From an uncultured delta proteobacterium (lineage in GTDB: Bacteria; Desulfobacterota; RBG-13-43-22), in assembly GCA_963790475.1 (NCBI GenBank), contig CAWBOS010000013.1:449730-513729 (forward strand): a stretch of 64,000 nucleotides of DNA, read 5' to 3'. Positions within the stretch are counted from its first letter, which is position 1. Every line of letters starts with the position of its first letter. A program made the position numbers and the translations under genes. Below, piece by piece: positions 8,085 through 44,738 of the stretch. The notes beneath the pieces were generated by a model. The model ran no database searches and was not told the origin of the DNA. It saw nothing but the letters and a program-made list of their open reading frames with translations.

Positions 8085-8288
8085 ATGACAAAAGTTATCT
8101 TCCAGGAAGAACGGTGCAAGGGGTGCGGACTGTGTGTCCTGGCCTGTCCAAAAAAAAATATAATTATCAGCGAAAAACTCAATAACCAGGGTTTTACCGT
8201 GGCCTCCATGACCGACGAAGAACGCTGTAATAGCTGCGCCCTTTGCGCTGAAATGTGCCCGGATGTGGTTATTGAAGTCTGGAAATAG
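8085..8288 (+). CDS. 2-oxoacid:ferredoxin oxidoreductase delta subunit (2x 4Fe-4S)
   Basis: Two CxxCxxCxxxCP motifs; first gene of the operon. Confidence 0.9.
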   Translation: MTKVIFQEERCKGCGLCVLACPKKNIIISEKLNNQGFTVASMTDEERCNSCALCAEMCPDVVIEVWK

Positions 8289-8292
8289 AATT

Positions 8293-8369
8293 TAGGCTGA
8301 AGGCTGAAGGTTGAAGGATTAAAAGAAAGCATTTTCTACTTTCAGCTATAAGCTATAAGCTATGAGCTA
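8293..8369. repeat. heptamer arrays (AGGCTGA)n and (AGCTATR)n
   Basis: taggctgaaggctgaaggttgaagg ... cagctataagctataagctatgagcta. Confidence 0.65.
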
Positions 8370-8384
8370 ATATTAGGAGTTGTT

Positions 8385-9434
8385 ATGACAAAACCCAAAA
8401 TGGAATTGGTGAATGGGAACGAGGCGATTGCCCGGGGGGCTTTAGCCGCCGGCTGCAAATTTTATTTCGGATATCCCATTACCCCTCAAAATGAGATCCC
8501 CGAATATTTGTCCAAACATATGCCGGAGGTGGAGGGGACCTTTATTCAGGCCGAAAGTGAAATAGCCTCTATCAATATGCTCCTGGGAGCCGGAGCTACC
8601 GGGGCCAGGGCCATGACCTCGTCTTCCAGTCCCGGAATTTCCTTAAAACAGGAAGGCATTTCTTATATGGCCGGGTGCGAGATTCCCGGAGTCATCGTCA
8701 ACATGAGTCGCAGCGGCCCTGGATTAGGAGGCATTTCCCCATCTCAAGGGGATTATTTTCAGGCCACCCGGGGAGGAGGACACGGAGATTACCGGACTAT
8801 CGTCCTGGCCCCTTTTTCCATCCAGGAAAATTATGATCTGACCATAACCGCCTTTGATCTGGCCGAAAAGTATCGTAACCCGGTGATGGTTCTTGGAGAT
8901 GCCCTGCTTGGCCAGATGAAGGAACCCATCCTCTTACGGCCCTACAAGCCCATGAAATTCGATAAGTCCTGGGCTTTGACCGGGGCCAAGGGGCGCAAAC
9001 CCAGATTTTTAAAAAGCCTCTATTTGAACGAAGGGGACCTGACCCAACATAACTGGAAGTTATTCCAAAAATATCAACAAATGAAGGCTGAAATTGCCTA
9101 TGATACCTATCAAATTGAAGATGCCGATATGGTCGTGGTTTCGTTTGGGTCCGTGGCCCGGATCATCAAATCTTCCATAAAGATGGCCCGGGATCAGGGG
9201 ATGAAAATCGGGCTTTTTCGACCAATAACCTTATACCCTTATCCCGAAGACATGGTTAGGCAGCTATCCCAGAAAGTAAATCATTTTTTTGTGGTGGAAT
9301 TAAATACCGGCCAGATGGTTGAGGACGTGAAGTTGTCGGTCGATAAAGGGGCCAGGGTGGATTTTTACGGCCGGCCTCCCGGCTCGATTCCCACCCCCAA
9401 TGAACTGTTTGACGAGATCGGGAAGGTCTATTAG
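8385..9434 (+). CDS. vorB: 2-oxoacid:ferredoxin oxidoreductase alpha subunit (VorB-like)
   Basis: GYPITPQ, QAESE, TSSSSPG, QATRGGGHGD. Confidence 0.85.
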   Translation: MTKPKMELVNGNEAIARGALAAGCKFYFGYPITPQNEIPEYLSKHMPEVEGTFIQAESEIASINMLLGAGATGARAMTSSSSPGISLKQEGISYMAGCEIPGVIVNMSRSGPGLGGISPSQGDYFQATRGGGHGDYRTIVLAPFSIQENYDLTITAFDLAEKYRNPVMVLGDALLGQMKEPILLRPYKPMKFDKSWALTGAKGRKPRFLKSLYLNEGDLTQHNWKLFQKYQQMKAEIAYDTYQIEDADMVVVSFGSVARIIKSSIKMARDQGMKIGLFRPITLYPYPEDMVRQLSQKVNHFFVVELNTGQMVEDVKLSVDKGARVDFYGRPPGSIPTPNELFDEIGKVY

Positions 9435-9488: not shown

Positions 9489-10238
9489 ATGAAACAGGTA
9501 TTTACGCGTCCCAAGAGTTTGAAAGATGTTCCTTTTCATTTTTGTCCCGGATGCCATCATGGGATCATTCATCGGCTGGTGGCCGAATGTATAGATGCCT
9601 ATGATCTTCGGGAGAAGACCGTCTGCGCCGCTTCGGTGGGTTGTTCGGTCTTTATGTATGACTATTTTGACATCGATGTCTGTGAGTCCCCCCATGGACG
9701 GGCGGCGGCAGTGGCTACCGGGATAAAAAGGGCCTTGCCGGAATGCTTTGTGTTTACTTACCAGGGTGACGGAGACTTGGCCGCCCTGGGCCTTGCCGAA
9801 GGCATCCATGCTGCCAACCGCGGAGAAAACATCACCATCGTCTTTGTCAACAACACCGTTTATGGTATGACCGGGGGACAGATGGCCCCGACCACGATGT
9901 TAGGACAGACTACGACTACTTCCCCTTTTGGCCGGGATTCCCGGAGGGAAGGATATCCAATCCGGATGGCTGAACTCCTGTCCATGACCGAGGGAACGGC
10001 CTTTTCCGCCCGGGTGGCCGTCAATACACCCAAGAATCTTATGCAGGCCAAGAAGGTCTTGAAAAAAGCCTTTGAGGTCCAGATCCGGAATCAGGGTTTT
10101 TCTTTTGTGGAATTTCTGTCCAGTTGTCCCACCAACTGGAAGATGACCGTGGAACAGGCCAACCAACGAATCCACGACGAAATGATCCCCTATTTTCCCT
10201 TGGGGATTTATAAAGACAAGACGATAGCGGAACATTAA
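9489..10238 (+). CDS. 2-oxoacid:ferredoxin oxidoreductase beta subunit (TPP-binding)
   Basis: FCPGC, GDGD..NN TPP motif, YGMTGGQ, SCPTNW. Confidence 0.92.
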
Positions 10239-10291
10239 TATTTAAAGCCAAAAGCTGATCGCTGAAAGCTGACTGCTATAGGAGTTTCATA

Positions 10292-10843
10292 ATGTACTTC
10301 GACATCATCATTGCCGGTTTCGGCGGACAGGGGGTCCTGTTACTGGGTAATCTTCTAACTTATGGGGCCATGGAAGAAGGCCGCCATGTCACTTACATGC
10401 CTGTTTATGGGGTGGAGATGCGCGGCGGAACCGCCAACTGTACCGTGGTCATATCCGATCAGGATATCGGTTCCCCGGTCATCCATCATCCGGTGACCGC
10501 GGTGGTCATGAATAAGCCGTCCCTATTAAGATTCGGGCCGATGGTCCAACCGGGGGGTTGGCTTTTTGTCAATTCTTCTTTGATCGATGCCCGGGAAGAA
10601 GATTATCCGGAAACCAAAATGATTATGGTTCCCACTATTGAATTAGCCGCCAAAGCCGGGGATCAACGATTGGCCAACATGACTATGCTGGGGGCCGTGA
10701 TTGAAGAAACAAAGGCCATCAGCCAGGAGGCCGTGATCAAGGCCTTTAAACGGGCTATGGATAAACGCTACCATAAAATGATTCCCATCAATACCACTGC
10801 CCTCGAAGAAGGCGCCAGGTTTATCCGGGAAGGAAGAAAATAA
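10292..10843 (+). CDS. 2-oxoacid:ferredoxin oxidoreductase gamma subunit
   Basis: GFGGQG, YGVEMRGG. Confidence 0.92.
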   Translation: MYFDIIIAGFGGQGVLLLGNLLTYGAMEEGRHVTYMPVYGVEMRGGTANCTVVISDQDIGSPVIHHPVTAVVMNKPSLLRFGPMVQPGGWLFVNSSLIDAREEDYPETKMIMVPTIELAAKAGDQRLANMTMLGAVIEETKAISQEAVIKAFKRAMDKRYHKMIPINTTALEEGARFIREGRK

Positions 10844-12681: not shown

Positions 12682-13078
12682 CCCATTACTCCCCCAGAGT
12701 TATTTTTAGAAAAATATCAAAATTTCCCTCTGGTGTCATTAAAGAAATGGTTCTCGGTTGAGGGAGGAAAAGAATCGAATAGATTTTAAAAAATACTTAA
12801 CCGTTTAATACTTCATGTAAAAACCACATTCGCGATTATTTGTCAATGATTTTTTCAATCGGTTAGGGGCCTTTATTAAAGTAAGGTTGATTAATTTATA
12901 TCACTAATAAATAATATAATAATTATTAATTGGACAAATGATTATCGTTTCCTTATTCTTTACCGAAGATAATTCGAAAAGGAATTAAGTTTTCTCAGAC
13001 AAAGACTTTTTATTTGATCTTGAATTAAAGAAAGGGTTCTGTTAGAAATTCACCAACCAATAAAATCTACTCAAGGTT

Positions 13079-13990
13079 ATGAACAAGCCCTTGGAAAAAA
13101 TCGCCTCCATTGATATCGGCTCCAATACCTTACGTTTATTAATCGCTGAGAGAAGGGAAACAGGATTTTGTCCATTGTTCCGGGATCGGGAGATTGTCCG
13201 GCTGGGACGGAATTTTTATCCGAACTGCCTCCTGACTTCACCGGCCATGGAAGCCGCTGTAAAGGTATTGAGACGATTTAAAATCAAGGCCGAAGAAGAA
13301 GAGGTAGCCCAAGTACAGGCCGTCGGCACCGGGGTGCTTCGAGAGTCCCGGAACGTCCTGTTTTTTTTAGAGAGAATTAAAGAGGAAACGGGCCTTTCGG
13401 TGGAAATTATCAATGGGATCGAAGAAGCCGGCCTAATGGCTAAGGGAGTTCTTTCCCTCTTTCCTGCAACTCATGGAAAAGCCATTATTTTTGATATTGG
13501 CGGCGGGAGTACTGAGTTTGTTTTTATAGACAATGGGCAGATGGAAGACAGGGTCAGTATGCCTCTTGGGGTTGTGGGACTCACCGAAAAATTTTTGCAA
13601 ACCGATCCTCCGAAATCCAATGAATTGGATTTACTTAAAGTCCATTGTCGAAATATTTTGAGGAAAAATTCGGCAAACGATGATAAGGTGACTACATTAA
13701 TCGGCACGGCAGGTACGGTCACCACTTTGGCCGCTATGATAAAAAACCTTTTTGAATATGACCCGGATCAGATCAACGGAACGGTCCTGACCGTTGAAAA
13801 TCTTCTTGAATTATCTGAAAAAATCTTGGCCGTGACTTTTGACCGCCGGTCAACATTAACCGGATTGGAACCGGGAAGGGCCGATATCATCAGCGCCGGA
13901 ATTCTTCTGGTTTTAGAGATCATGGATCATTTTTCCCAAAAGGCGCTGCTGGTCAGCGATGCCGGGCTTTTGGAAGGGTTGATCCTATGA
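13079..13990 (+). CDS. ppx: Ppx/GppA phosphatase family protein
   Basis: IDIGSNT, DIGGGSTE, GTAGT, GRADII. Confidence 0.9.
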   Translation: MNKPLEKIASIDIGSNTLRLLIAERRETGFCPLFRDREIVRLGRNFYPNCLLTSPAMEAAVKVLRRFKIKAEEEEVAQVQAVGTGVLRESRNVLFFLERIKEETGLSVEIINGIEEAGLMAKGVLSLFPATHGKAIIFDIGGGSTEFVFIDNGQMEDRVSMPLGVVGLTEKFLQTDPPKSNELDLLKVHCRNILRKNSANDDKVTTLIGTAGTVTTLAAMIKNLFEYDPDQINGTVLTVENLLELSEKILAVTFDRRSTLTGLEPGRADIISAGILLVLEIMDHFSQKALLVSDAGLLEGLIL

Positions 13991-13993
13991 AAA

Positions 13994-15616
<1,623 letters not shown>

Positions 15617-15685
15617 AAAAGACGTTCGTTGTAAATCGTTTGTCGTTCAGCGATATTAACTATTAAATGATTAGTTCGGAGTAAT

Positions 15686-16220
15686 TAGTTCGGAGTTCGG
15701 AGTTCGGAGTAAAAAAATTAAAAATATTTGGAGTTGGGAGTTTATAGAGGGGATCGGAAAGTGGATGGGGAAAAGTTTGATTTTGAGGGTCTGATTGTTT
15801 ATCAAAAAGGGTTGGAATATGTTGATTTTGTCTATGCGATTACTAAAATTTTCCCTAAATCCGAAATCTTTTCTTTGACGGATCAATTTCGAAGAGCCTC
15901 TTCCTCTATATGTTTCAATATTGCCGAAGGAAGTGGCGGGAGCAAAGCAGAATTCAAACAATTTCTTAAAATTGCCAGAAGGTCGGCAAGAGAATGCGTG
16001 GCTATAACGGAAGTTTCCTTTCGACAAAAATATATTACCCAGGAACAAAAAAATAGGTCCAGAAAATATTGTCTGGAACTTTCAAAAATGTTAAATGGGT
16101 TGATAAAATCCATCAAGTAATTTCTTTGAATTCAACAGGTATTTCAGAAAAAAGGACTTAATCCGAACTCCGATCTGAAAATCGGTCAAGGTTTTACTCC
16201 GAACTCTGAACTCCGAACTA
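15686..16220. mobile_element. putative element: 25-bp heptamer-built inverted termini enclosing a four-helix-bundle gene
   Basis: TAGTTCGGAGTTCGGAGTTCGGAGT (15686-15710) and ACTCCGAACTCTGAACTCCGAACTA (16196-16220); same termini at 22545-22619; lies between guaB and guaA. Confidence 0.6.
15761..16120 (+). CDS. four helix bundle protein (23S rRNA IVS protein family)
   Basis: FEGLIVYQK, FPKSE.FSLTDQFRRA, NIAEG, FLKIARRSAREC. Confidence 0.92.
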   Translation: MDGEKFDFEGLIVYQKGLEYVDFVYAITKIFPKSEIFSLTDQFRRASSSICFNIAEGSGGSKAEFKQFLKIARRSARECVAITEVSFRQKYITQEQKNRSRKYCLELSKMLNGLIKSIK

Positions 16221-16285
16221 TATTCGGTAACGGTGATAAATCTCTAAATCTAAAATTTAAATTGTACGCAACAGAGGAACCCCGA

Positions 16286-17845
16286 GTGGACATCCACAGT
16301 CAAAAAGTTTTGATCCTGGATTTCGGTTCCCAGACCACCCAGCTTATTGCCCGGCGGGTCCGGGAGGCCAGGGTGTATTGCGAGATCCATCCCTTTAACT
16401 GGTCTCTGGAAAAAATCAAGGCCTTTGATCCCCAGGGGATTATCCTTTCGGGAAGTCCCGCCAGTGTCTACGATTCCAAGGCCCCGCTTCCGGATCCCAA
16501 GATTTTGAATTTAGGGGTGCCGGTATTGGGGATTTGTTATGGGATGCAATGGATAACCCATCAATTAAAAGGTCAGGTGGGCCGCTCCGGCAAAAGGGAA
16601 TACGGCCGGGTGGAACTCGAGTTTCTGGATTTTCAGGATCTTTTTTCCGGGCTCGACAAAGGGGATAAAAACCGGGGCCGGATCGTCTGGATGAGTCATG
16701 GGGACCGGATCGAACGCCTCCCCAAGGGATTTACGGCCATCGCTCAAAGCTCCAATGCCCCGGTAGCCGCCATGCGTAATTCCGAGAGGACGGTTTTCGG
16801 AGTTCAATTTCACCCGGAAGTAGTCCATACCCCGGCCGGACATCGTATCCTGAAAAATTTCCTGTTCAAGGTCTGTAAACTGAAACCGCTATGGACCCCC
16901 AGTTCCTTTATCAAGCAGACCATTGCCTCGGTTCAACAACAGGTAGGAAAGGAGAAAGTTATCTGTGGTCTTTCCGGCGGGGTGGATTCCTCGGTAGTAG
17001 CCGTACTGCTCCATCAGGCTATTGGGAAGCAGTTGACCTGCATTTTTGTCAACAACGGGGTGTTGCGAAGTGGAGAGGCCGAAAAAGTGATCCGGCTCTT
17101 CCGGGGTCATTACCGTATCCCCTTGATTTATGTGGATGCCTCTCAATCTTTCCTCAAGAAACTGAAGGGGGTGGTTGACCCGGAAAAAAAACGGACTATT
17201 ATCGGTCATGAATTTATCCGTATTTTTGATGCCGAAGCTAAAAGGATCGGACCAGTCCGTTTCCTGGCCCAGGGGACCCTCTACCCCGACGTGATTGAAT
17301 CGGTATCCTTTAAAGGCCCTTCGGCCACCATCAAGACCCACCATAATGTGGGCGGCCTTCCGGCCCGAATGAAATTAAAACTGATAGAACCTCTGCGGGA
17401 ATTATTTAAGGATGAAGGCCGGGAAGTGGGACGAAATCTTGGGTTGCCCGAGGAGATCGTCAGCCGCCAGCCTTTTCCGGGTCCCGGGTTGGCCATTCGC
17501 ATCCTGGGCGAGGTGACCGAAGTCCGGTTAAACATCCTCCGTCAGGCCGATACCATTGTCTGGGAGGAAATGCGGAAGGCCGATTTATATACCAGGGTCT
17601 GGCAGTCCTTTGCCGTTTTGCTGCCTATAAAAACCGTGGGGGTCATGGGAGACGAGCGGACTTACGAAAATGTCATAGCCCTCCGCATCGTGGACAGCCT
17701 GGATGCCATGACAGCGGACTGGAGCCGTATTCCTTATGACCTTCTGGGCCACATGTCCAACCGGATCATCAATGAAGTCAAAGGGGTCAATCGGGTCGTC
17801 TTTGATATTTCTTCCAAACCACCCAGCACCATTGAGTGGGAATGA
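16286..17845 (+). CDS. guaA: GMP synthase (glutamine-hydrolysing)
   Basis: [33 protein letters not shown]. Confidence 0.98.
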
Positions 17846-17855
17846 AAAAAGAACA

Positions 17856-17990
17856 AGTTCTGAGTTCGGAGTTATTAGTTCGTAGTGAAAATCAGATAAT
17901 CTAAAGATATCTCTCTCCGAACTCCGAACTCCGAACTAATTTCGTTGAACGGTTAACACTTTTTTGAACTTTGAACCTTGAACTTTGAAC
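17856..17990. repeat. inverted GGAGTTC/GAACTCC arrays (17856-17938) plus (TTGAACY)n array (17964-17990)
   Basis: agttctgagttcggagt ... ctccgaactccgaactccgaacta; ttgaactttgaaccttgaactttgaac. Confidence 0.75.
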
Positions 17991-17997
17991 GGTTTTT

Positions 17998-20900
17998 ATG
18001 CCCCACGCACCTTTTGTACATCTTCATCTCCACACCCAGTATAGCCTGCTGGATGGAGAGATTCGCCTTAAAGGGTTGTTTGAAAAGGCCCAGGCCTTCA
18101 AACTGCCGGCTATTGCCATGACCGATCACGGCAACCTCTTCGGTATGGTGGATTTTTATAAACAGGCTCAAAAACATGGGTTGAAACCCATTATCGGCTG
18201 CGAAGTCTATGTAGCTCCGGGAAGCCGGCTGCAAAAAGAGACCCATCCCCATCAGGAAAATGCCTTCCACTTGGTCCTGCTTTGCAAGAACGAAAAAGGC
18301 TATCGCAATCTGGTCAAATTAGTCACCCAAGCCTATTTTGAAGGTTTTTACTACAAGCCCCGGATCGACCGGGAGCTGTTGAGGGAACATCACAAAGGCC
18401 TGATCGCCATGACCGCTTGCCTGCATGGAGAGATCCCCCATTATCTTCTCCAAGGTGATTTTGACCGGGCCTTGAAAACCACGCGGGAGCTGGCCGAGAT
18501 ATTCGACCAGGATCGGCTTTACCTGGAACTCCAAAAGAACGATATCCCCGAGCAGGAAATCGTCAACAAAGGCCTGCTGGAAATCCATCGTCAATTGGGC
18601 CTCCCCATTGTAGCCACGAATGATTGCCATTACCTGACTCAGGAAGAGTCCAAGGCCCACGATGTCTTACTTTGTATCCAGACCGGAAAGACGGTGGACG
18701 ACCCCAACCGGCTGCGCTTTTCCACCAATCAACTCTATTTCAAGTCCCCGGAAGAGATGTCCCTGCTCTTTGCCGACCTGCCCGAGGCCCTGGAAAATAC
18801 GGTGCGCATCGCCGATCGATGCAATCTGGAATTGACTTTCGGCCAATCCTTTCTCCCCCGTTACGCCCTGCCTCCGGAAGAAACCATGGATGGGCGTCTC
18901 AAAAATGAGGCCCGGGCCGGTTTGCGAAGAGCGGCTGGCCGTCAAAGAACAGCTGAATCCGGCCTTCCCTCCTTCCCGGCACAAAGAATATCAGGACCGT
19001 CTGGAAAGGGAACTGACGGTAATCACTTCAACCGGATTTTCCGGGTATTTCCTGGTGGTTTCCGATTATGTGCGTTTTGCCAAAGAGAAGGGGATCCCGG
19101 TCGGGCCGGGCCGGGGTTCCGGAGCCGGGAGTCTGGTAGCCTACGCCTTAAAGATTACCGATATCGACCCCCTGGATTACGGGTTGATCTTTGAGCGGTT
19201 CCTGAATGTGGAACGAAAAGAACTGCCGGATATCGATGTTGATTTCTGTGTGGAACGCCGGGATGAGGTCTTAAAATATATCGCCGAGAAATACGGCCAG
19301 GAGTATGTGGCCCAGATCATCACCTTTGGTAAGATGCAGGCCCGGGCCGTCATTCGCGACGTGGGCCGGGCTTTGAACATCCCCTACGGAGAAGTGGATA
19401 AGATCGCCAAACTGATCCCTACAGTATTGAACATTACCTTGAGCGAGGCCCTGGAAATGGAACCCCGGCTCAAGGAACTGAAAGAGTCGGACCCGACCAT
19501 AAAAGAATTGCTGACCATCGCCGAAGCCCTGGAAGGCCTCCCCCGTCATGCCTCCACCCACGCCGCAGGCATAATTATTTCCCCACATCCCATAACCGAT
19601 ACCGTCCCCTTATATAAAGGTCCCAAGGGAGAAACCCTGACCCAGTACGAAATGAAATCGGTCCAGGAAATGGGGTTGATCAAGTTTGATCTCCTGGGCC
19701 TGAACAACCTGACCATTATTCAGTATGCCTTAAGAACTATTGAACGGACTCACAGTCAATTAATTGATTTGACCCGGATCCCTCTCGATGATCCGGCTAC
19801 TTATGAACTGCTGGGCCGGGGAGATACCAACGGTGTGTTTCAATTGGAAAGTTCGGGGATGAAAGAATTGTTGATCAGGATGAAGCCCCAAAATTTTGAG
19901 GACCTCATTGCCATCAATGCCCTTTACCGGCCCGGGCCTTTGAAAAGTGGTATGGTCGATGATTTTGTCCGGAGAAAACACGGGGAAGTGCCGGTCGAGT
20001 ATCCCCATCCGCTCCTGGAAGGGGTCTTGAAAGAAACCATGGGGATCATTGTTTACCAGGAACAGGTCATGCAGATCGGTGCATTATTGGCCGATTATTC
20101 CATGGGAGAGGCCGACACCTTACGAAAGGCCATGGGCAAAAAGATTCCCGAGGTCATGGCCCAGCAACGGACCCGCTTTCTGGAAGGGACCAAGAAAAAA
20201 AGGATCGACCAGAAGAAGGCCGACGACATTTTTGACAAAATGGAAACCTTCGGCGGCTACGGGTTTAACAAGTCTCACAGTGCCGCCTATGCCTTGATCA
20301 CCTACCAGACCGCTTATCTGAAGGCCCATTATCCCCTCGATTTCATGGTAGCCCTGATGACCAGTAAAATGGGCAATTCCGCGGAAGTGACCAAGTGCAT
20401 TGCTGAATGCCGGGAAAAAGGGATTGTGGTCCTGCCCCCGGATGTGAACCTGAGTCACCTGGATTTTACGGTCGTGGAAGACAAAATCCGTTTCGGGCTG
20501 GCGGCGGTAAAAAATGTCGGGGCCGGGGCCATAGAGTCCATCCTGGAGGCCAGGAATAATAGGGGAGAATTTAAATCTCTGATCGATTTTTGTCGTCGGG
20601 TGGATCTGCGCCGGGTGAACCGCAGGGTGGCGGAGAGTCTGATCAAGTGCGGGGCTTTCGATTCCCTGGGGGTGGCCCGTTCCCGGCTGATGGCCTTTTT
20701 GCCCGAAGCCCTGGACATAGGCCAACAACGTCAAAAAGAAGAGTCTGAAAACCAGTTCAGTCTTTTTTCCATGGGAGGAGATTCGGGGTTAACCCGGCCC
20801 GATATTGATCCTCCTATGGTCGAGGAATGGCGGGAGAGCCAAAAACTTTCTTTTGAAAAAGAAATATTGGGTTTTTATATTACCGGTCATCCCTTGACCC

Positions 20901-21520
20901 GCTACGCGGAAAGCCTGCAAGACCTGAAAACCATGGACATCCAATCCTTGTCCGAACTGGAAGATAAAGAAAATGTGCGATTGGCCGGGATGGTGGCCGC
21001 CCTGAAAGAGATTAACAGTAAAAAAGGGGAGCGGATGGCATTTGCCACGATTGAGGACCTGACCGGCTCTTGTGAAGTTATCATTTTCTCCGATATTTTT
21101 CGAAAATGTTCCCAGGTGTTAAAAGAAGAAGGGCCGCTATGGGTCACCGGTATCACGACCAAAGATGAAAAAGGGATTAAAGTCATTGCCAACGATATAC
21201 TCCCTTTGACTGAGGTCGAAGAAAAAATGGCCCTGCAGGCCGTTCTCAAATTGCAGGTCAACGGCTTGACCCGGACTCAACTTTCAGAATTGAAGGATTT
21301 TTTAAAAAATCATACCGGCTCCTGCCCGGTCCGGATTTGCGCCTGCCTTCCGGATAAAAGCCAGGTCGTCTTGAGTCTTCCGGAAACTTTGACTATCCGG
21401 CCTTCGGTTCGGATGCGACGCGAAATGAAGGGGCTTTCCTGCAAACCCTTTCTGGAAGTGGTTTACCCCGATTTTGCAAAAGCCGAGGGCAATGGGGATC
21501 AGAGGCGGCGGGGACAATAA
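17998..21520 (+). CDS. dnaE: DNA polymerase III alpha subunit, one frameshift near 18925 (probable sequence error)
   Basis: HLHLHTQYSLLDG PHP domain in first ORF; GPGRGSGAGS, PDIDVD, YGFNKSH in second. Confidence 0.95.
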
Positions 21521-21694
21521 AAACAAGGTGCAAGGTTTTAGGTAGTAATAGTTCGGAGTTTGGTGTTCGGAGTCCGGAAAAACCTTTGAGTTTTGGTTGA
21601 AAAGAATGGCGGAAAAAGTGGAGGGTCTTATAGGTCTTGATACCTCCCGGTTATAATGGTCACCCATGGACAACGGGTTTTCTAATCTTTTACC

Positions 21695-21799
21695 TTGAAC
21701 CCTGAACCTCGAACCTTGAACCCTGAACCTCGAACCTTGAACCCTGAACCTCGAACCTTGAACCTTAGACCATGAACCTTAAACCTTATACCTCAAACC
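21695..21799 (+). repeat. 15 tandem heptamers (consensus TTGAACC), first 63 bp a perfect 3x21-mer
   Basis: (TTGAACC CTGAACC TCGAACC)x3 then degenerate units; opposite-orientation arrays at about 21525-21577. Confidence 0.9.
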
Positions 21800-21809
21800 T
21801 GAATTTATT

Positions 21810-22538
21810 ATGCCAGAATATCAGGAGCGATTCTACCGCAGCAAAATCAATTCTCCGGACTGGGTCTCTTTTACCATCCAGGTCAAGGAAAGCGACCTCT
21901 GGGTGCGGGCCAGGAAAGATCTTTCGGCTGAAGGCTATGAACGGGTTTTTCAGTACCGTCATTCCCTGGAAATCTATATTCAACAACACCCCGAATTCAA
22001 AGAATCCTTACAGCCCCTTGAATTAGATTCTCTGGCCCCGCCCATTGTGCAAGCCATGCTGCAGGCCGCTAAGACCGCCGGGGTCGGTCCCATGGCCGCG
22101 GTGGCCGGGGCTATCGCCATGTTTGTCGGGCAGGATCTGCTGGCCTTTTCCCCGGATGTTATTATTGAAAACGGTGGGGATTTATTTATCGCCTGCCACG
22201 AGCCCCTGACCGTTGGAATCTACGCCGGAGAGTCATCTTTGAGCGGAAGGTTGGGAATTCAGTTGGCCCCTTCCGGCAGGCCGGTAGGGTTGTGCACTTC
22301 TTCCGGGACCGTGGGCCATTCCTTGAGCTTTGGCCGGGCCGATGCCGTGACTATTTTTTCTCCGTCGGCCACCCTTTCCGACGCCGTGGCCACCGCTGTG
22401 GGCAACCGGGTACAAACTAAAAACGATATCCAACCGGCCCTGGAATGGGCCCAACAGATTCCGGAGGTCGAGGGGGTTTTGATTATTGTTGGAGATCAGG
22501 TCGGGGTTTGGGGGGAGTTGGAGTTGGTGACCTTGTAG
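21810..22538 (+). CDS. UPF0280 / ApbE-like family protein
   Basis: VGPMAAVAGAIA, ENGGD, CTSSGTVGHSLSFG.ADA. Confidence 0.9.
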   Translation: MPEYQERFYRSKINSPDWVSFTIQVKESDLWVRARKDLSAEGYERVFQYRHSLEIYIQQHPEFKESLQPLELDSLAPPIVQAMLQAAKTAGVGPMAAVAGAIAMFVGQDLLAFSPDVIIENGGDLFIACHEPLTVGIYAGESSLSGRLGIQLAPSGRPVGLCTSSGTVGHSLSFGRADAVTIFSPSATLSDAVATAVGNRVQTKNDIQPALEWAQQIPEVEGVLIIVGDQVGVWGELELVTL

Positions 22539-22544
22539 AGCGAT

Positions 22545-22619
22545 TAGTTCGGAGTTCGGAGTTCGGAGTAGAAACTCAACGTGCAGGATCGCTAACTCCG
22601 AACTCTGAACTCCGAACTA
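22545..22619. repeat. empty copy of the 25-bp inverted-termini element
   Basis: Both 25-mers identical to those flanking the four-helix-bundle gene, 25-bp spacer. Confidence 0.9.
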
Positions 22620-22648
22620 TATTTTTATTATAGAAGAGGTACTTCATT

Positions 22649-23521
22649 ATGAAGCTCAGTAGATTTTTCTTTTTGTCAGTGATTATTATTCTCGCTGGTG
22701 TTTGGGGCTGTGGGACGGCTCCGGTGGCCAAAGAACGCAAGGGCCCACCAAAGATTGCCCTGGTCCTGGGGGGTGGGGCAGCCCGGGGATTTGCCCACGT
22801 GGGAGTCATACGGGCTCTGGAGCAGGAAAAGATTCCCATCAGTATGATCGTCGGGACCAGTGTGGGCAGCCTGATTGGAGCCCTTTATGCCTCCGATCCT
22901 AACAGCTTCAATCTGGAATGGTTGTCCTTCACCATAGAAAAAGAGGATATCTTCGATTATTCCGTGATTTATTCCAAGATGGGACCGGTGCAGGGCGAAA
23001 GGCTGGAGAAATTTGTTCAAACCAAGGTCAAAGCGAAAACCATGGAACAGATGAAGATTCCTTTTTATGCCGTAGCCACGGATCTCAACGAAGGAAACAC
23101 CTGGGTCTTTGAAAAGGGTTCGGTGGCCAAAGCCGTACGGGCCAGCTCTTCCATTCCGGGGATTTTCCAACCGCTCGAATTGGGAGGTAAAATGTATGTG
23201 GATGGCGGAGTGACCGACAATTTGCCGGTGGATGTGGCCCGGGCCAAAGGGGCCGATATTATCATCGCCGTCAATATCTCCAAAAATATCCGGAACCCTC
23301 AAATCAACACTTTGATCGATGTCATTATGCAGTCCATCAATATCATGGGCCGGGAACTGTGTACCTACAAGTCAAGGGGGTATGATGTGCTCATTGAACC
23401 CAATGTGGGGGACGTGGGCATGACCGATTTTACCCAAAAGAAGCGTTTAATGGATGCCGGTATCCAGGCCGCCAAACAGGCCATGCCCCGGATTAAGAAA
23501 TTAATTGAAGAAAAATCTTGA
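22649..23521 (+). CDS. patatin-like phospholipase, probable lipoprotein
   Basis: GGGAARG, GTSVG, DGG motifs; signal peptide ending VWGC. Confidence 0.9.
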   Translation: MKLSRFFFLSVIIILAGVWGCGTAPVAKERKGPPKIALVLGGGAARGFAHVGVIRALEQEKIPISMIVGTSVGSLIGALYASDPNSFNLEWLSFTIEKEDIFDYSVIYSKMGPVQGERLEKFVQTKVKAKTMEQMKIPFYAVATDLNEGNTWVFEKGSVAKAVRASSSIPGIFQPLELGGKMYVDGGVTDNLPVDVARAKGADIIIAVNISKNIRNPQINTLIDVIMQSINIMGRELCTYKSRGYDVLIEPNVGDVGMTDFTQKKRLMDAGIQAAKQAMPRIKKLIEEKS

Positions 23522-29582: not shown

Positions 29583-30653
29583 TTATTGAACTACACCAGG
29601 CACATATTCCACCTGGTTCTTTAACACATAACGAATGCGGTTGAGCAGTTTCCGGGCGATCTTGATAATGGCCCTGGTTTTCTTCATCCGTTGGCAATAT
29701 TCATTAAAGGCCAAAAGCAGGACCGGGTCCTTGCGGGCCGCCACCCAGGCGGCTTCGATGAGCAAAGCCCTTAATTGGGGGTTTCGCCGGTGGGTTAAGT
29801 TTTTTATATGTTCGGTCTCCCCACTGGATTCGACATCGGGGATTAATCCGACATAACTGGCCAACTTGTCGAGGGAGACAAAGCGGGCCAACTCACCCAG
29901 CTCGGTCAGGAAAATCATGGCCGCCAGGGTACTGATCCCCGGGATCGTTTTTAACAACCGGACCCTTTCGCGATATTCTGCTTCCCGGGCCAGCAAAATG
30001 ATGGACCGGTTTAAAGAAGCGATGATCCGTTTCAGATGATGGAGTTCGTCTAAGTGGGCCTTGAGGGCCATATCGCCACTGGTCCGCTCCATACGAAGAT
30101 TTTCGAGACAGCCAAGAAATTTTTGAGACCAATGGCGGTCAACAACTTCTTCGGGCAGAGTAATCCCATAGAAGTAAAGGAGCGCCTTAATTTGATTTTT
30201 ACACCGGGTTTGCTTTCTCACCATACTTTGGCGGGTTCGAACCAGACTGCGATCCTCCAGCTTCGGACGGCTCGGGACGTAAATCCCTTTCAGTTCCCCG
30301 CTCCGGAGGCTCCTGCCCAGCTTGCGGCTGTCGGTTCGATCCCGCCTAGTGGTCCGTTCTTTATTGGTCGTCGGGACATCGGCCGGGTTGACCACGATGC
30401 AATTCACCCCTTTTTCCTGAAGCTGATCGTGAGCCCAGAAGCCGCTAAACCCGGCCTCATAGGCCGCCTGATAGCTCGCTCCAGGAAAGTTCTTTCGAAG
30501 ATAATGGACCAGTTTGTCTGCTTCTGGAGGTTGGGTAAAAGTCTTATGCTCGCACTGTCTAGAAAAAATGCTCACGCTCCAACTCTTCTTGTGGACATCC
30601 AGTCCCACGTAAATCGATTGACCCGAAAAATCCAATTTGTTAATCTGTACCAC
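29583..30653 (-). CDS. IS110-family transposase/recombinase
   Basis: GLDVHK, YEAG, RDRTD, ESSG, IARKLL. Confidence 0.95.
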   Translation of the reverse strand: MVQINKLDFSGQSIYVGLDVHKKSWSVSIFSRQCEHKTFTQPPEADKLVHYLRKNFPGASYQAAYEAGFSGFWAHDQLQEKGVNCIVVNPADVPTTNKERTTRRDRTDSRKLGRSLRSGELKGIYVPSRPKLEDRSLVRTRQSMVRKQTRCKNQIKALLYFYGITLPEEVVDRHWSQKFLGCLENLRMERTSGDMALKAHLDELHHLKRIIASLNRSIILLAREAEYRERVRLLKTIPGISTLAAMIFLTELGELARFVSLDKLASYVGLIPDVESSGETEHIKNLTHRRNPQLRALLIEAAWVAARKDPVLLLAFNEYCQRMKKTRAIIKIARKLLNRIRYVLKNQVEYVPGVVQ

Positions 30654-43390: not shown

Positions 43391-44623
43391 ATGCCCGGTT
43401 ACGAAGTCTTGGGAGAAGAAGAGAAAAAAGAAATCTTGGAGGTCCTGGAAACGGGGGTCCTGTTTCGCTACGGATTTCCGGCCCAACGAAAAGGACGCTA
43501 TAAAGTTGAAGAATTTGAAAAAAAGTTCGCCGAATATACCGGCAGGAAATTTGCCCTGGCGGTTTCCTCCGGAAGCGCGGCCTTAAAAGTGGCCCTGGCG
43601 GCCTTGGGGGTGGGTTTTGGAGATGAGGTCATTACCAGCGGATTCACCTTCGTGGCCACTTGGGAGTCCGTTTTGGAATGCGGGGCCGTCCCGGTATTTT
43701 CGGGAATCGATGATACCTTAAACCTGGACGCCGAAGAGCTGTCAAAAAAAATCACCCCTCGGACAAAGGCCATTATCCCGGTTCATATGCTGGGGGCTCA
43801 AGCCCGGATCGAGGCCATTATGGCCGTGGCCGATCGACACCATATCCCGGTGATTGAAGACACCGCCCAGGCCTGCGGCGGATTTATCAAAGGGAAGGCC
43901 CTGGGTTCCTATGGGGCCATCGGCACCTTCTCTTTTGATTCGGTGAAGACCCTGACTACCGGTGAGGGGGGCATGTTGATCATGGATGATCCGGAACTCT
44001 ACCGCCGAGCCTCGGAATATCACGATCACGGCCATGATCATATCGGACCCGACCGGGGATTGGAAAGCCGAAGCTTTATCGGATTTAATTATCGCATGAT
44101 GGAACTGCAAGGGGCCCTGGGGCTGGCCCAGTTGTCCAAATTAAAGGCCATGATTTCCGCGCAAATGGCCCATAAAGCCCGCTTGAAACAAATCCTGGCC
44201 GGCATTCAAGGGATTCGTTTTCGGGAACTGGTGGATCCTGAAGGGGACACCGCCACCTTCCTGGCTTTTTCCCTGCCCGATCAGGAGAAGACCCGAACCC
44301 TGAAAGATTTAGCCAAAAAGGTGGGACTGGGACTGGTCTATTTTTTTGAAAACGGGTGGCATTATTATCGCAACTGGGAACATCTGCTTTTGCAGAAGAC
44401 CGCCAGCCGCAATGGCTGGCCCTTTCAGGTGGAAGATAACGTCAGGAAGCTGAACTATCCCCGGGACCTCCTGTCCCGCACCGATGAAAGGATGGCCTGC
44501 CTGCTGGTCTTGCCCATAAATATCAGGATGGATGAAGAGGTTTTTAAGAAAGCGGAACAATTAGTTCTGAAGCAAGAATTTCATAACAAACTCTCATGCT
44601 TCTGGAAACATCACGGAGCATGA
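43391..44623 (+). CDS. kdnA: DegT/DnrJ aminotransferase resembling KdnA (Kdo8N transaminase)
   Basis: MPGYEVLGEEEK start, SFDSVKT..GEGG PLP site, DHGHDHIG.DRG motif. Confidence 0.7.
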   Translation: MPGYEVLGEEEKKEILEVLETGVLFRYGFPAQRKGRYKVEEFEKKFAEYTGRKFALAVSSGSAALKVALAALGVGFGDEVITSGFTFVATWESVLECGAVPVFSGIDDTLNLDAEELSKKITPRTKAIIPVHMLGAQARIEAIMAVADRHHIPVIEDTAQACGGFIKGKALGSYGAIGTFSFDSVKTLTTGEGGMLIMDDPELYRRASEYHDHGHDHIGPDRGLESRSFIGFNYRMMELQGALGLAQLSKLKAMISAQMAHKARLKQILAGIQGIRFRELVDPEGDTATFLAFSLPDQEKTRTLKDLAKKVGLGLVYFFENGWHYYRNWEHLLLQKTASRNGWPFQVEDNVRKLNYPRDLLSRTDERMACLLVLPINIRMDEEVFKKAEQLVLKQEFHNKLSCFWKHHGA

Positions 44624-44738
44624 AAATATACGAGGTTTCAAGGGGGGTCAAGGTCCGCAGGGCGGAGTGAACGGCTTGGAATTTAAAACCCTCGAACCCT
44701 TGAACCTTGAACCCTATTTTCTAACAAGGAGACGGCTT

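Follow-up and report, generated by a model that had tools for sequence, protein, structure and literature searches.

The guaB-guaA junction of the window (the whole 64-kb stretch of DNA that was analysed) carried a cassette, in which a four-helix-bundle gene of the PF05635 family stood between two inverted arms made of a 7-base word. In some relatives, the same junction was empty or held another gene of the family with another word. We favour, at slightly under even confidence, the reading that such junction cassettes are self-propagating along a DNA route that would be guided by the protein and catalysed by the host. A first-pass annotation had pointed to the gene, its bracketing repeats and an empty twin. 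Its observation was confirmed, and its interpretation as a mobile unit was partly supported. The features of the locus and of nearby junctions were as follows.

10238 to 10292, plus strand: solitary right arm from another cassette, with the word AGCGATC; this junction is loaded in G011, G005 and G007
13994 to 14093, no strand assigned: gene-less AGTTCGG hairpin between ppx and guaB; G004 and G005 carry a homologous allele, and further relatives have different words here
14147 to 15616, plus strand: guaB (IMP dehydrogenase, IMPDH; PF00478, E 3.5e-163), host gene upstream, with a stop codon that bounds the exchanged junction on the left
15623 to 15652, plus strand: decayed outer left arm with an older A-type word (CGTTCG-), read from the sequence; intact A-type arms stand there in G010, G001 and G006
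15673 to 15710, plus strand: left arm, five AGTNNNN units plus AGT (AGTTCGG; variant unit 2; three perfect units)
15761 to 16120, plus strand: four-helix-bundle gene of clade A', 119 aa, GTG start, PF05635/TIGR02436
16162 to 16173, plus strand: partial extra right-arm units, read from the sequence
16196 to 16220, plus strand: right arm, the left word in reverse complement, with a TCTG variant in unit 2 counted from outside
16286 to 17845, plus strand: guaA (GMP synthase; PF00958, PF00117), host gene downstream, with a start codon that bounds the exchanged junction on the right
17856 to 17937, no strand assigned: gene-less AGTTCGG hairpin between guaA and dnaE; behind it stands a right arm left over from a different word
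21521 to 21800, no strand assigned: nested junction 3' of dnaE, with outer AAGGTNN/NNACCTT arms and a lone AGTTCGG left arm (21549-21578) inside
22543 to 22623, no strand assigned: empty twin hairpin, 28 + 29 nt identical to the loaded arms, with a loop unrelated to the cassette

In profile searches, the product of the A' gene scored 108.1 bits against PF05635 (cut-off 33.8) and 103.7 bits against TIGR02436 (cut-off 24). The locus matched PF05635 plus a weak bAvd only. The G+C content of the gene was 36%, compared with 49% for the window. The modelled protein (pLDDT 94.7) matched the fold of Xcc0516 (2GSC) with a TM of 0.90 and an rmsd of 1.5, and the BT_0352 fold was also matched. Avd was a distant match (TM 0.79, identity 12%), and the Avd profile score of 23 bits was far under the cut-offs of 80 and 40. 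We infer from the five chains each in 2GSC and 2RLD that the A' protein would be a homopentamer. Close relatives of the gene came from Thermodesulfobacteriota or delta proteobacterium records. The dN/dS of cassette genes was 0.05-0.16 in 16 pairs, and by this measure the gene was shown to be under purifying selection. The 6.34-Mb genome (G000) held 13 PF05635 matches, most with their own inverted word. An Rfam search of window positions 13000-23500 matched nothing, and promoter and terminator scans at the locus stayed at chance level. Among the contigs of four sequencing runs compared with the window, one of run X1, which may be the source sample, crossed guaB into the cassette with 6 differences, and one of run X4 tracked guaB to 15617 and then departed from the window sequence. 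Arm-to-arm joints in the four runs were rejected as excision, since their sides were shorter than 30 nt and derived from other hairpins.

The two 25-mers that had been described as bracketing the gene were exact, and each occurred twice in the genome, here and at 22545-22619. The identity between the loaded element and the twin was longer than described, with 28 nt on the left (15684-15711 = 22543-22570) and 29 nt on the right (16196-16224 = 22595-22623). The looser empty copies and the lone left arm that had been noted were all found (13994-14093, 17856-17937 and 21549-21578). The left arm was present as reported, but it started at 15673 and not at 15686, and the older CGTTCG-type units stood outside it at 15623-15652. 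The 25-mers were not the termini, because the junction comparison gave the entire stretch from guaB stop to guaA start as the exchanged unit. Nor had the twin been freshly copied from the loaded element. In G005 and G008, the orthologous site held an AGTTCGG hairpin that also has the TCTG variant, and the twin was therefore inherited. Both a recent copy and a deletion product of the A' cassette were ruled out by this orthologous hairpin and the unrelated loop. The TCTG variant unit also occurred beyond the twin, and 5 genomic elements contained the 22-mer that carries it. Arm sequence may have been converted between the loaded element and the twin. The exact match of their arms may reflect arm exchange within the genome or simply a common family variant.

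That all copies share one orientation relative to transcription proved trivial, because an inverted pair is identical on both strands. The true asymmetry was in the arms, and the G-rich arm came first in 29 left-right pairs, with 0 right-left pairs. The copies had all been called intergenic; genome-wide, 12 of 83 arms lay inside crude ORF calls. The suggested pairing of the arms in the transcript was borne out by prediction, with a 33-pair stem here and a fold z of -7.55 for the twin. This predicted stem consists of the terminal inverted repeats around an S23p-family ORF.

The repeats formed a family across the genome. Seven was the commonest short period, with 188 runs compared with 6-69 for periods 5, 6 and 8-12. 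The AGTTCGG word gave 30 arms on contigs C13 and C15 together, and ten permuted heptamers gave 0-6; genome-wide, AGTTCGG arms numbered 83 under one definition and 97 under another. Heptamer arrays of all words numbered 375, and 331 were outside crude ORF calls, which cover 80% of the genome. Arrays avoided divergent junctions (13/278 vs 628/3609, p 8e-10), and the median distance from the upstream stop to the start of the 5' arm was 17 nt. In middle units flanked by two perfect units, AGT was kept in 96-100% and TCGG in 38-72% when each of the seven rotations served as an anchor, and the conservation held for 5' and 3' arms taken separately. On these alignments, only the AGT core was shown to be invariant, in both arms. 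The complementarity of variable units in paired arms was no better than chance (p 0.26; 2 exact mirrors, 0.24 expected). The loops of 32 empty hairpins resembled neither one another nor the cassette. Loop pairs scoring at least 20 numbered 3 of 496, compared with 2 in shuffles, and the single strong pair had identical arms and loop on two contigs. A single master empty element was ruled out by these unlike loops. Neighbouring junctions carried the same word in 37 of 143 cases (18.9 in shuffles). In a per-cassette clustering test, 7 of 11 cassettes showed none; each had 0-5 neighbours, so cis action was unsupported by the count. Gains and losses of units between orthologous arrays looked slippage-like.

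The link between word and protein was measured at loci of the whole family. The 103 PF05635 hits were reduced to 76 distinct loci, and arms were called matched at 22/28 or better, in a 7-base test that counts genes flanked by 8-9-base units (G000:C6:180900-181600, L101, L111) as unmatched; by this test, matched inverted arms were present at 43 of the 76 family loci, compared with 1 of 118 control ORFs and 4 of 150 swapped pairs. Direct-orientation matches occurred at only 7 of 76. A second set of 143 loci gave 115 profile hits and 100 loci with usable distinct flanks, including four repeat genus loci. Matched arms were found at 60 of these 100 (56 of 96 without the genus repeats), compared with 3 of 150 swapped pairs. 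The expected association of arms with this protein family was upheld by both matched-arm tests. When two proteins were more than 60% identical, their words differed by no more than one mismatch in 73-94% of pairs; below 50% identity, this was so in at most 4%. An identical word surrounded a 70%-identical gene copy in a Candidatus Scalindua record. As far as words and proteins can be compared across loci, the 7-base word was shown to belong to the protein clade. Clade A occurred at several unrelated sites, with three A copies in G010. A family-wide residue-to-base code was sought in 64 representatives and none was found (best z 6.6; null 95th percentile 6.0), and the sole feature common to their words was an AG step (51/64, compared with 35 in letter shuffles). 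Around the genes with 8-9-base units, a complete hairpin stood on each side.

The density of words was then compared between sisters. The carrier of the matching gene had the denser word in 13 of 17 contrasts by share (p 0.025) and in 12 of 17 per Mb (p 0.07), for six words, non-independent kin and rough calls of intact and broken genes; the contrary contrasts, 4-5 of the 17, had ratios of 0.6-0.94. AGTTCGG arrays were abundant in G007, G003, G011 and G031, where a matching gene was not found, and A-word arrays likewise in G001 and G002. TGGAT-rich genomes were expected to carry the gene, which was present in G001 and not found in G002. Word density lends weak support to an action of the protein in trans, and abundant arrays could equally attract the gene.

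The guaB-guaA site was followed in relatives. We searched 41 genomes with guaA and scored the site in 19 family genomes, which gave A' in 4, A in 4 (one a remnant), B in 5 and an empty hairpin in 6, and G013 was a further A'. The A' gene with AGTTCGG arms was present in G000, G005, G006, G009 and G013. The A gene with CGTTCG arms was present in G004, G010 and G018, with a remnant in G017. The B gene (33-36% identity, AAGGTNN arms) was present in G003, G007, G008, G012 and G011. The empty hairpin was present in G001, G014, G015, G016, G019 and G020. In three distant genomes, the junction was just 16-33 nt. The alignment of relatives that the first-pass annotation had called for gave empty sites and replacement. 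The gene was not fixed and presence/absence polymorphism exists, and none of the contrary outcomes it had named (a fixed gene, arrays unrelated to the family, no polymorphism) was seen. The idea of a loaded and empty element family that lacks a transposase was supported by these site states and by the arm association.

Three sister pairs (100/100 support) were each split between A' and B, on guaA and on genes not touching the cassette. Their flanking genes were about 95% identical, and windows up to the junction were 90-99% identical. With these queries, no B carrier yielded A' and no A' carrier yielded B, in genomes that were 76-100% complete. The tree of 300 nt on each side was the host tree, and the AU test rejected a B clade (p 1.6e-11) and an A' clade (p 4.3e-9). 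The state changed 9 times among 18 genomes. Non-host signal in guaB was confined to the last 7 nt (5 informative sites, all at distance 3-6), and in guaA to the first 45 nt of one pair (7 differences, p 0.0009). Long co-conversion tracts around the junction were looked for and none was found. Same-type alleles shared a site-specific flank, including the ribosome-binding stretch, up to the guaA start. The A' and B alleles leaned weakly to the host topology (11:7:7 and 15:8:6 sites), and the cassette dS was near the host dS. By junction comparison, the exchanged unit was shown to be the whole stretch from stop to start. Either replacement was repeated from a pool of related donors or both alleles persisted through several splits. 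Genes broken by a stop or frameshift were found at the site in G012, G011, G008, G005, G004 and G018, beside the G017 remnant. A unit of about 100 nt (3' untranslated stretch and right arm) was repeated head-to-tail, three times in G013 (L034:1-330, to the contig end) and twice in G009 (L033). At L144:1000-1760, an A'-like gene was followed by a second copy of the upstream flank and left arm and then by the right arm, a partial tandem.

Turnover was also observed at other junctions. Hairpins were present at all neighbouring junctions of the guaB-guaA operon, and the word differed between relatives. Among the sites listed across genomes were differing cassettes, nested arms, internal-deletion remnants and same-word empties. 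At several sites, the alignments showed that gene-less hairpins arise via internal deletion of cassettes. The B-type hairpins at ppx-guaB had no clear loop homology across lineages. In 9 of 10 cases, the cassette gene pointed the same way as its upstream neighbour. About 106 kb of G006, picked for being word-rich, were compared with G007, to which they were 95% identical over 80 kb. Of the 35 arrays that could be assessed, 26 lay in alignment breaks (3 of the 26 facing assembly gaps in G007) and 9 were shared, with 10 more arrays left out as unassessable. Non-heptamer palindrome families joined the turnover in this region. In L283-L309, palindromes of the GTCATTCC...GGAAT and GTAGGG types swapped with heptamer hairpins at the same junctions. 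These palindromes are presumably linked to small nuclease or transposase genes.

A second hot spot was located at G000:C13:393259-393480, L036, L081 and L106, between what we take to be a phosphofructokinase-like gene and a tsaD-like gene. G007 had a cassette of CGGATT type there, G010 an A cassette nested between CGGATT arms, and G000 an empty B hairpin. At window positions 8280-8385, a left arm AGGCTGA stood with a right arm of another word (AGCTATA/AGCTATG), as mismatched leftovers. A separate frame was observed at window positions 44587-44730 (G000:C13:494316), and 19 more left ends were present in G000. Its hairpin-bearing left end AAACCCTCATG...CATGAAAA and right end TATTTTCG(A/T)ACTAAA enclose a variable cargo of 17-199 nt, which often consists of heptamer arms or other palindromes. 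The frame was kept and its cargo swapped at one orthologous site (L287:12137 vs L303:1343). A parent gene was sought for this fixed-end frame and none was found.

In the protein-guided, host-catalysed route, the cassette consists of the four-helix-bundle gene and two inverted arms with 3-5 copies of the clade's own word. By comparison of sites, it replaces the whole stop-to-start stretch, often inside or instead of an older hairpin. The protein would most likely form a five-membered ring and read 3-5 invariant bases per unit, with about one unit per subunit, and this recognition would take place on single-stranded nucleic acid at both cassette ends. Cutting and joining would be left to host repair or to an enzyme in trans, via very short flanking matches; a catalytic role of the protein was not found. 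Gene-less hairpins come from internal deletion, as shown at several sites, and would probably also spread with the protein's help. The hairpin leaves the ribosome-binding site and reading frames of the operon intact, and the insert would therefore be tolerated in the operon. A broader claim is offered tentatively. PF05635 proteins may drive enzyme-less mobile elements, in which a clade-specific pentameric ring rewrites operon junctions, evicts rival cassettes with almost no flanking transfer and seeds hairpins. They would then be the source of the long-noted heptamer excess in bacterial genomes and the likely ancestor of rRNA intervening sequences and of DGR Avd.

The alternative that survived best holds that A', A and B are old balanced alleles swapped by homologous recombination in guaB/guaA. 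The protein would then be a host-serving RNA regulator acting on heptamer hairpins (processing or stability), with no role in movement. We regard this as possible but doubtful. It too predicts the shared flanks of same-type alleles up to the guaA start, the lean of quartets to the host topology and a cassette dS that tracks host dS, which count against the protein-guided reading. Long-term balance also predicts a foreign signal limited to a few bases at the junction. The position of arrays in transcribed junctions and the cutting of the Coxiella IVS stem by RNase III, described in the available text of PMC4990558, are further points for it. The frequent pseudogenes at guaB-guaA (six genomes, and the G017 remnant) argue against old balanced alleles, as do the occurrence of one clade at many unrelated sites and the position of 26 of 35 assessable arrays in junctions rewritten between two 95%-identical genomes. 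The ppx-guaB hairpins of B type, with no clear loop homology across lineages, also count against it, and the same core was kept in both arms although the transcript presents them as different sequences. The protein-guided reading has further points against it. No family-wide residue-to-base code emerged, arrays abound in genomes where the matching gene was not found, and other palindrome families rewrite the same junctions, so that turnover may be generic.

Movement via RNA, the route suggested by the first-pass annotation, appears unlikely. An Avd-like protein would hold the cassette RNA and recruit a reverse transcriptase encoded elsewhere, and the cDNA would replace the junction through few matching bases. 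The structural kinship to Avd is consistent with this, since Avd is described as a pentamer required for cDNA synthesis (PMC6182149 and 10.1101/2023.10.23.563531, in their accessible parts). So are the exchange edges within a few bases of the junction, the depletion of arrays at untranscribed divergent junctions, the co-orientation of cassette genes with the upstream gene and the tandem repeats of the 3' end and right arm in G013 and G009. The 9 reverse transcriptase hits in the genome also fit this route. The nearest of them was more than 200 kb from the guaB-guaA cassette, and none was beside any cassette inspected. No Avd over the DGR cut-off was found in 14 genomes, the identity to Avd was just 12%, and the variable positions were unlike the adenine-specific DGR pattern. 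The least probable reading, which we hold very unlikely, needs no dedicated system (slippage grows arrays, fold-back repair makes hairpins, fragile junctions carry the gene along and some hairpins sit in transposase-driven frames) and agrees with the slippage-like unit changes, the mutual replacement of palindrome families, the variable cargo of the separate frame and 20 Y1 transposase hits in G000, but slippage does not explain position-specific conservation, the match of word and clade at dS near 1 and across phyla, the strict G-rich-first polarity or the purifying selection on the gene, and only 3 of 331 arrays lay directly inside the frame.

The cassette was compared with known systems. 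MITEs and insertion sequences have loaded and empty forms with inverted ends. A definition of MITEs is also given in 10.1101/2021.07.10.451892, as far as its available text goes. The cassette family resembles them in having both forms, but it encodes no transposase, has no fixed termini and no visible target duplication, and its empties have no common internal sequence. Transposase or recombinase genes were absent inside the cassette, and candidates elsewhere in G000 were not linked to it. In REPIN-RAYT systems, a single-copy gene is likewise flanked by its own repeat, many extragenic inverted pairs have highly variable spacers, and each protein group is tied to one repeat type (10.1101/2021.07.10.451892). 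The differences are that the cassette encodes a four-helix bundle and not an HUH tyrosine transposase (no PF01797 match at the locus), that its arms are tandem heptamers and not the short palindromes described there, and that its gene changes site and is replaced, whereas the accessible text of that source describes RAYTs as not moving themselves.

The ORF-bearing 23S rRNA intervening sequence shares the S23p family and the position inside a long terminal stem, which is predicted here. In Coxiella burnetii, tandem heptamers (GACAGAT) at its 5' end vary in number and the ORF decays, and Leptospira is also cited (PMC4990558, available text). In contrast, the present cassette lies between the protein-coding genes guaB and guaA and outside rRNA. 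A single genome here holds many clades whose words differ, gene-less hairpins lie throughout it, and unrelated cassettes replace each other at one site. DGR Avd has the same fold, and a pentameric barrel is described among relatives in the accessible parts of PMC6182149, 10.1101/2023.10.23.563531 and PMC10053308. Unlike in a DGR, a linked reverse transcriptase, template repeat or variable repeat was absent at the cassette, whose flanks are guaB and guaA. The A' cassette is not a DGR. According to the available text of PMC3936711, PF05635-family genes occur within cas operons, an observation that agrees with insertion at operon junctions.

Unexplained intergenic heptamer arrays were described earlier, as GGGAATC inverted pairs of Xanthomonas (PMC4692102), arrays of four and five units in Geobacter metallireducens (PMC2700814) and TAACTGA heptamers of Beggiatoa (PMC4679880). 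In the available parts of these sources, they resemble the present arrays in their 7-base units, intergenic position, frequent inverted pairing, G-rich arm close behind the stop codon and strong variation between relatives. The same parts, unlike the present data, contain no tie to PF05635 genes and no account of cassettes exchanged at orthologous sites. PMC4679880 raises the idea that the mobile element may be a protein which binds the repeats. A gene-plus-heptamer cassette outside rRNA was not found described in the literature covered, which comprised main texts free of subscription.

Two old puzzles meet in this cassette, the role of the widespread S23p/PF05635 proteins and the excess of intergenic 7-base tandem repeats, an over-representation noted for bacteria as unexplained in the available text of PMC4692102. 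The cassette reading may account for the 7-base repeats of many bacterial genomes. Should the protein direct exchange, the cassette would be a mobile element that encodes no enzyme, and its protein a programmable reader of repeats. Should the protein bind RNA and do nothing more, operon regulation would have an extensive, unrecognised layer that turns over faster than the adjoining genes. The guaB-guaA site offers matched natural pairs, in which the A' and B proteins each come with a word of their own at a single site, in sister genomes that differ in the junction only.

Two further observations concerned the window itself. An IS110-family transposase (PF02371, PF01548) was located at 29583-30653. 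The dnaE gene was read in two frames (17998-19194 and 18890-21520), and contigs of all four sequencing runs were one base shorter at 18924-18926. The split of dnaE is probably an assembly error in the window.
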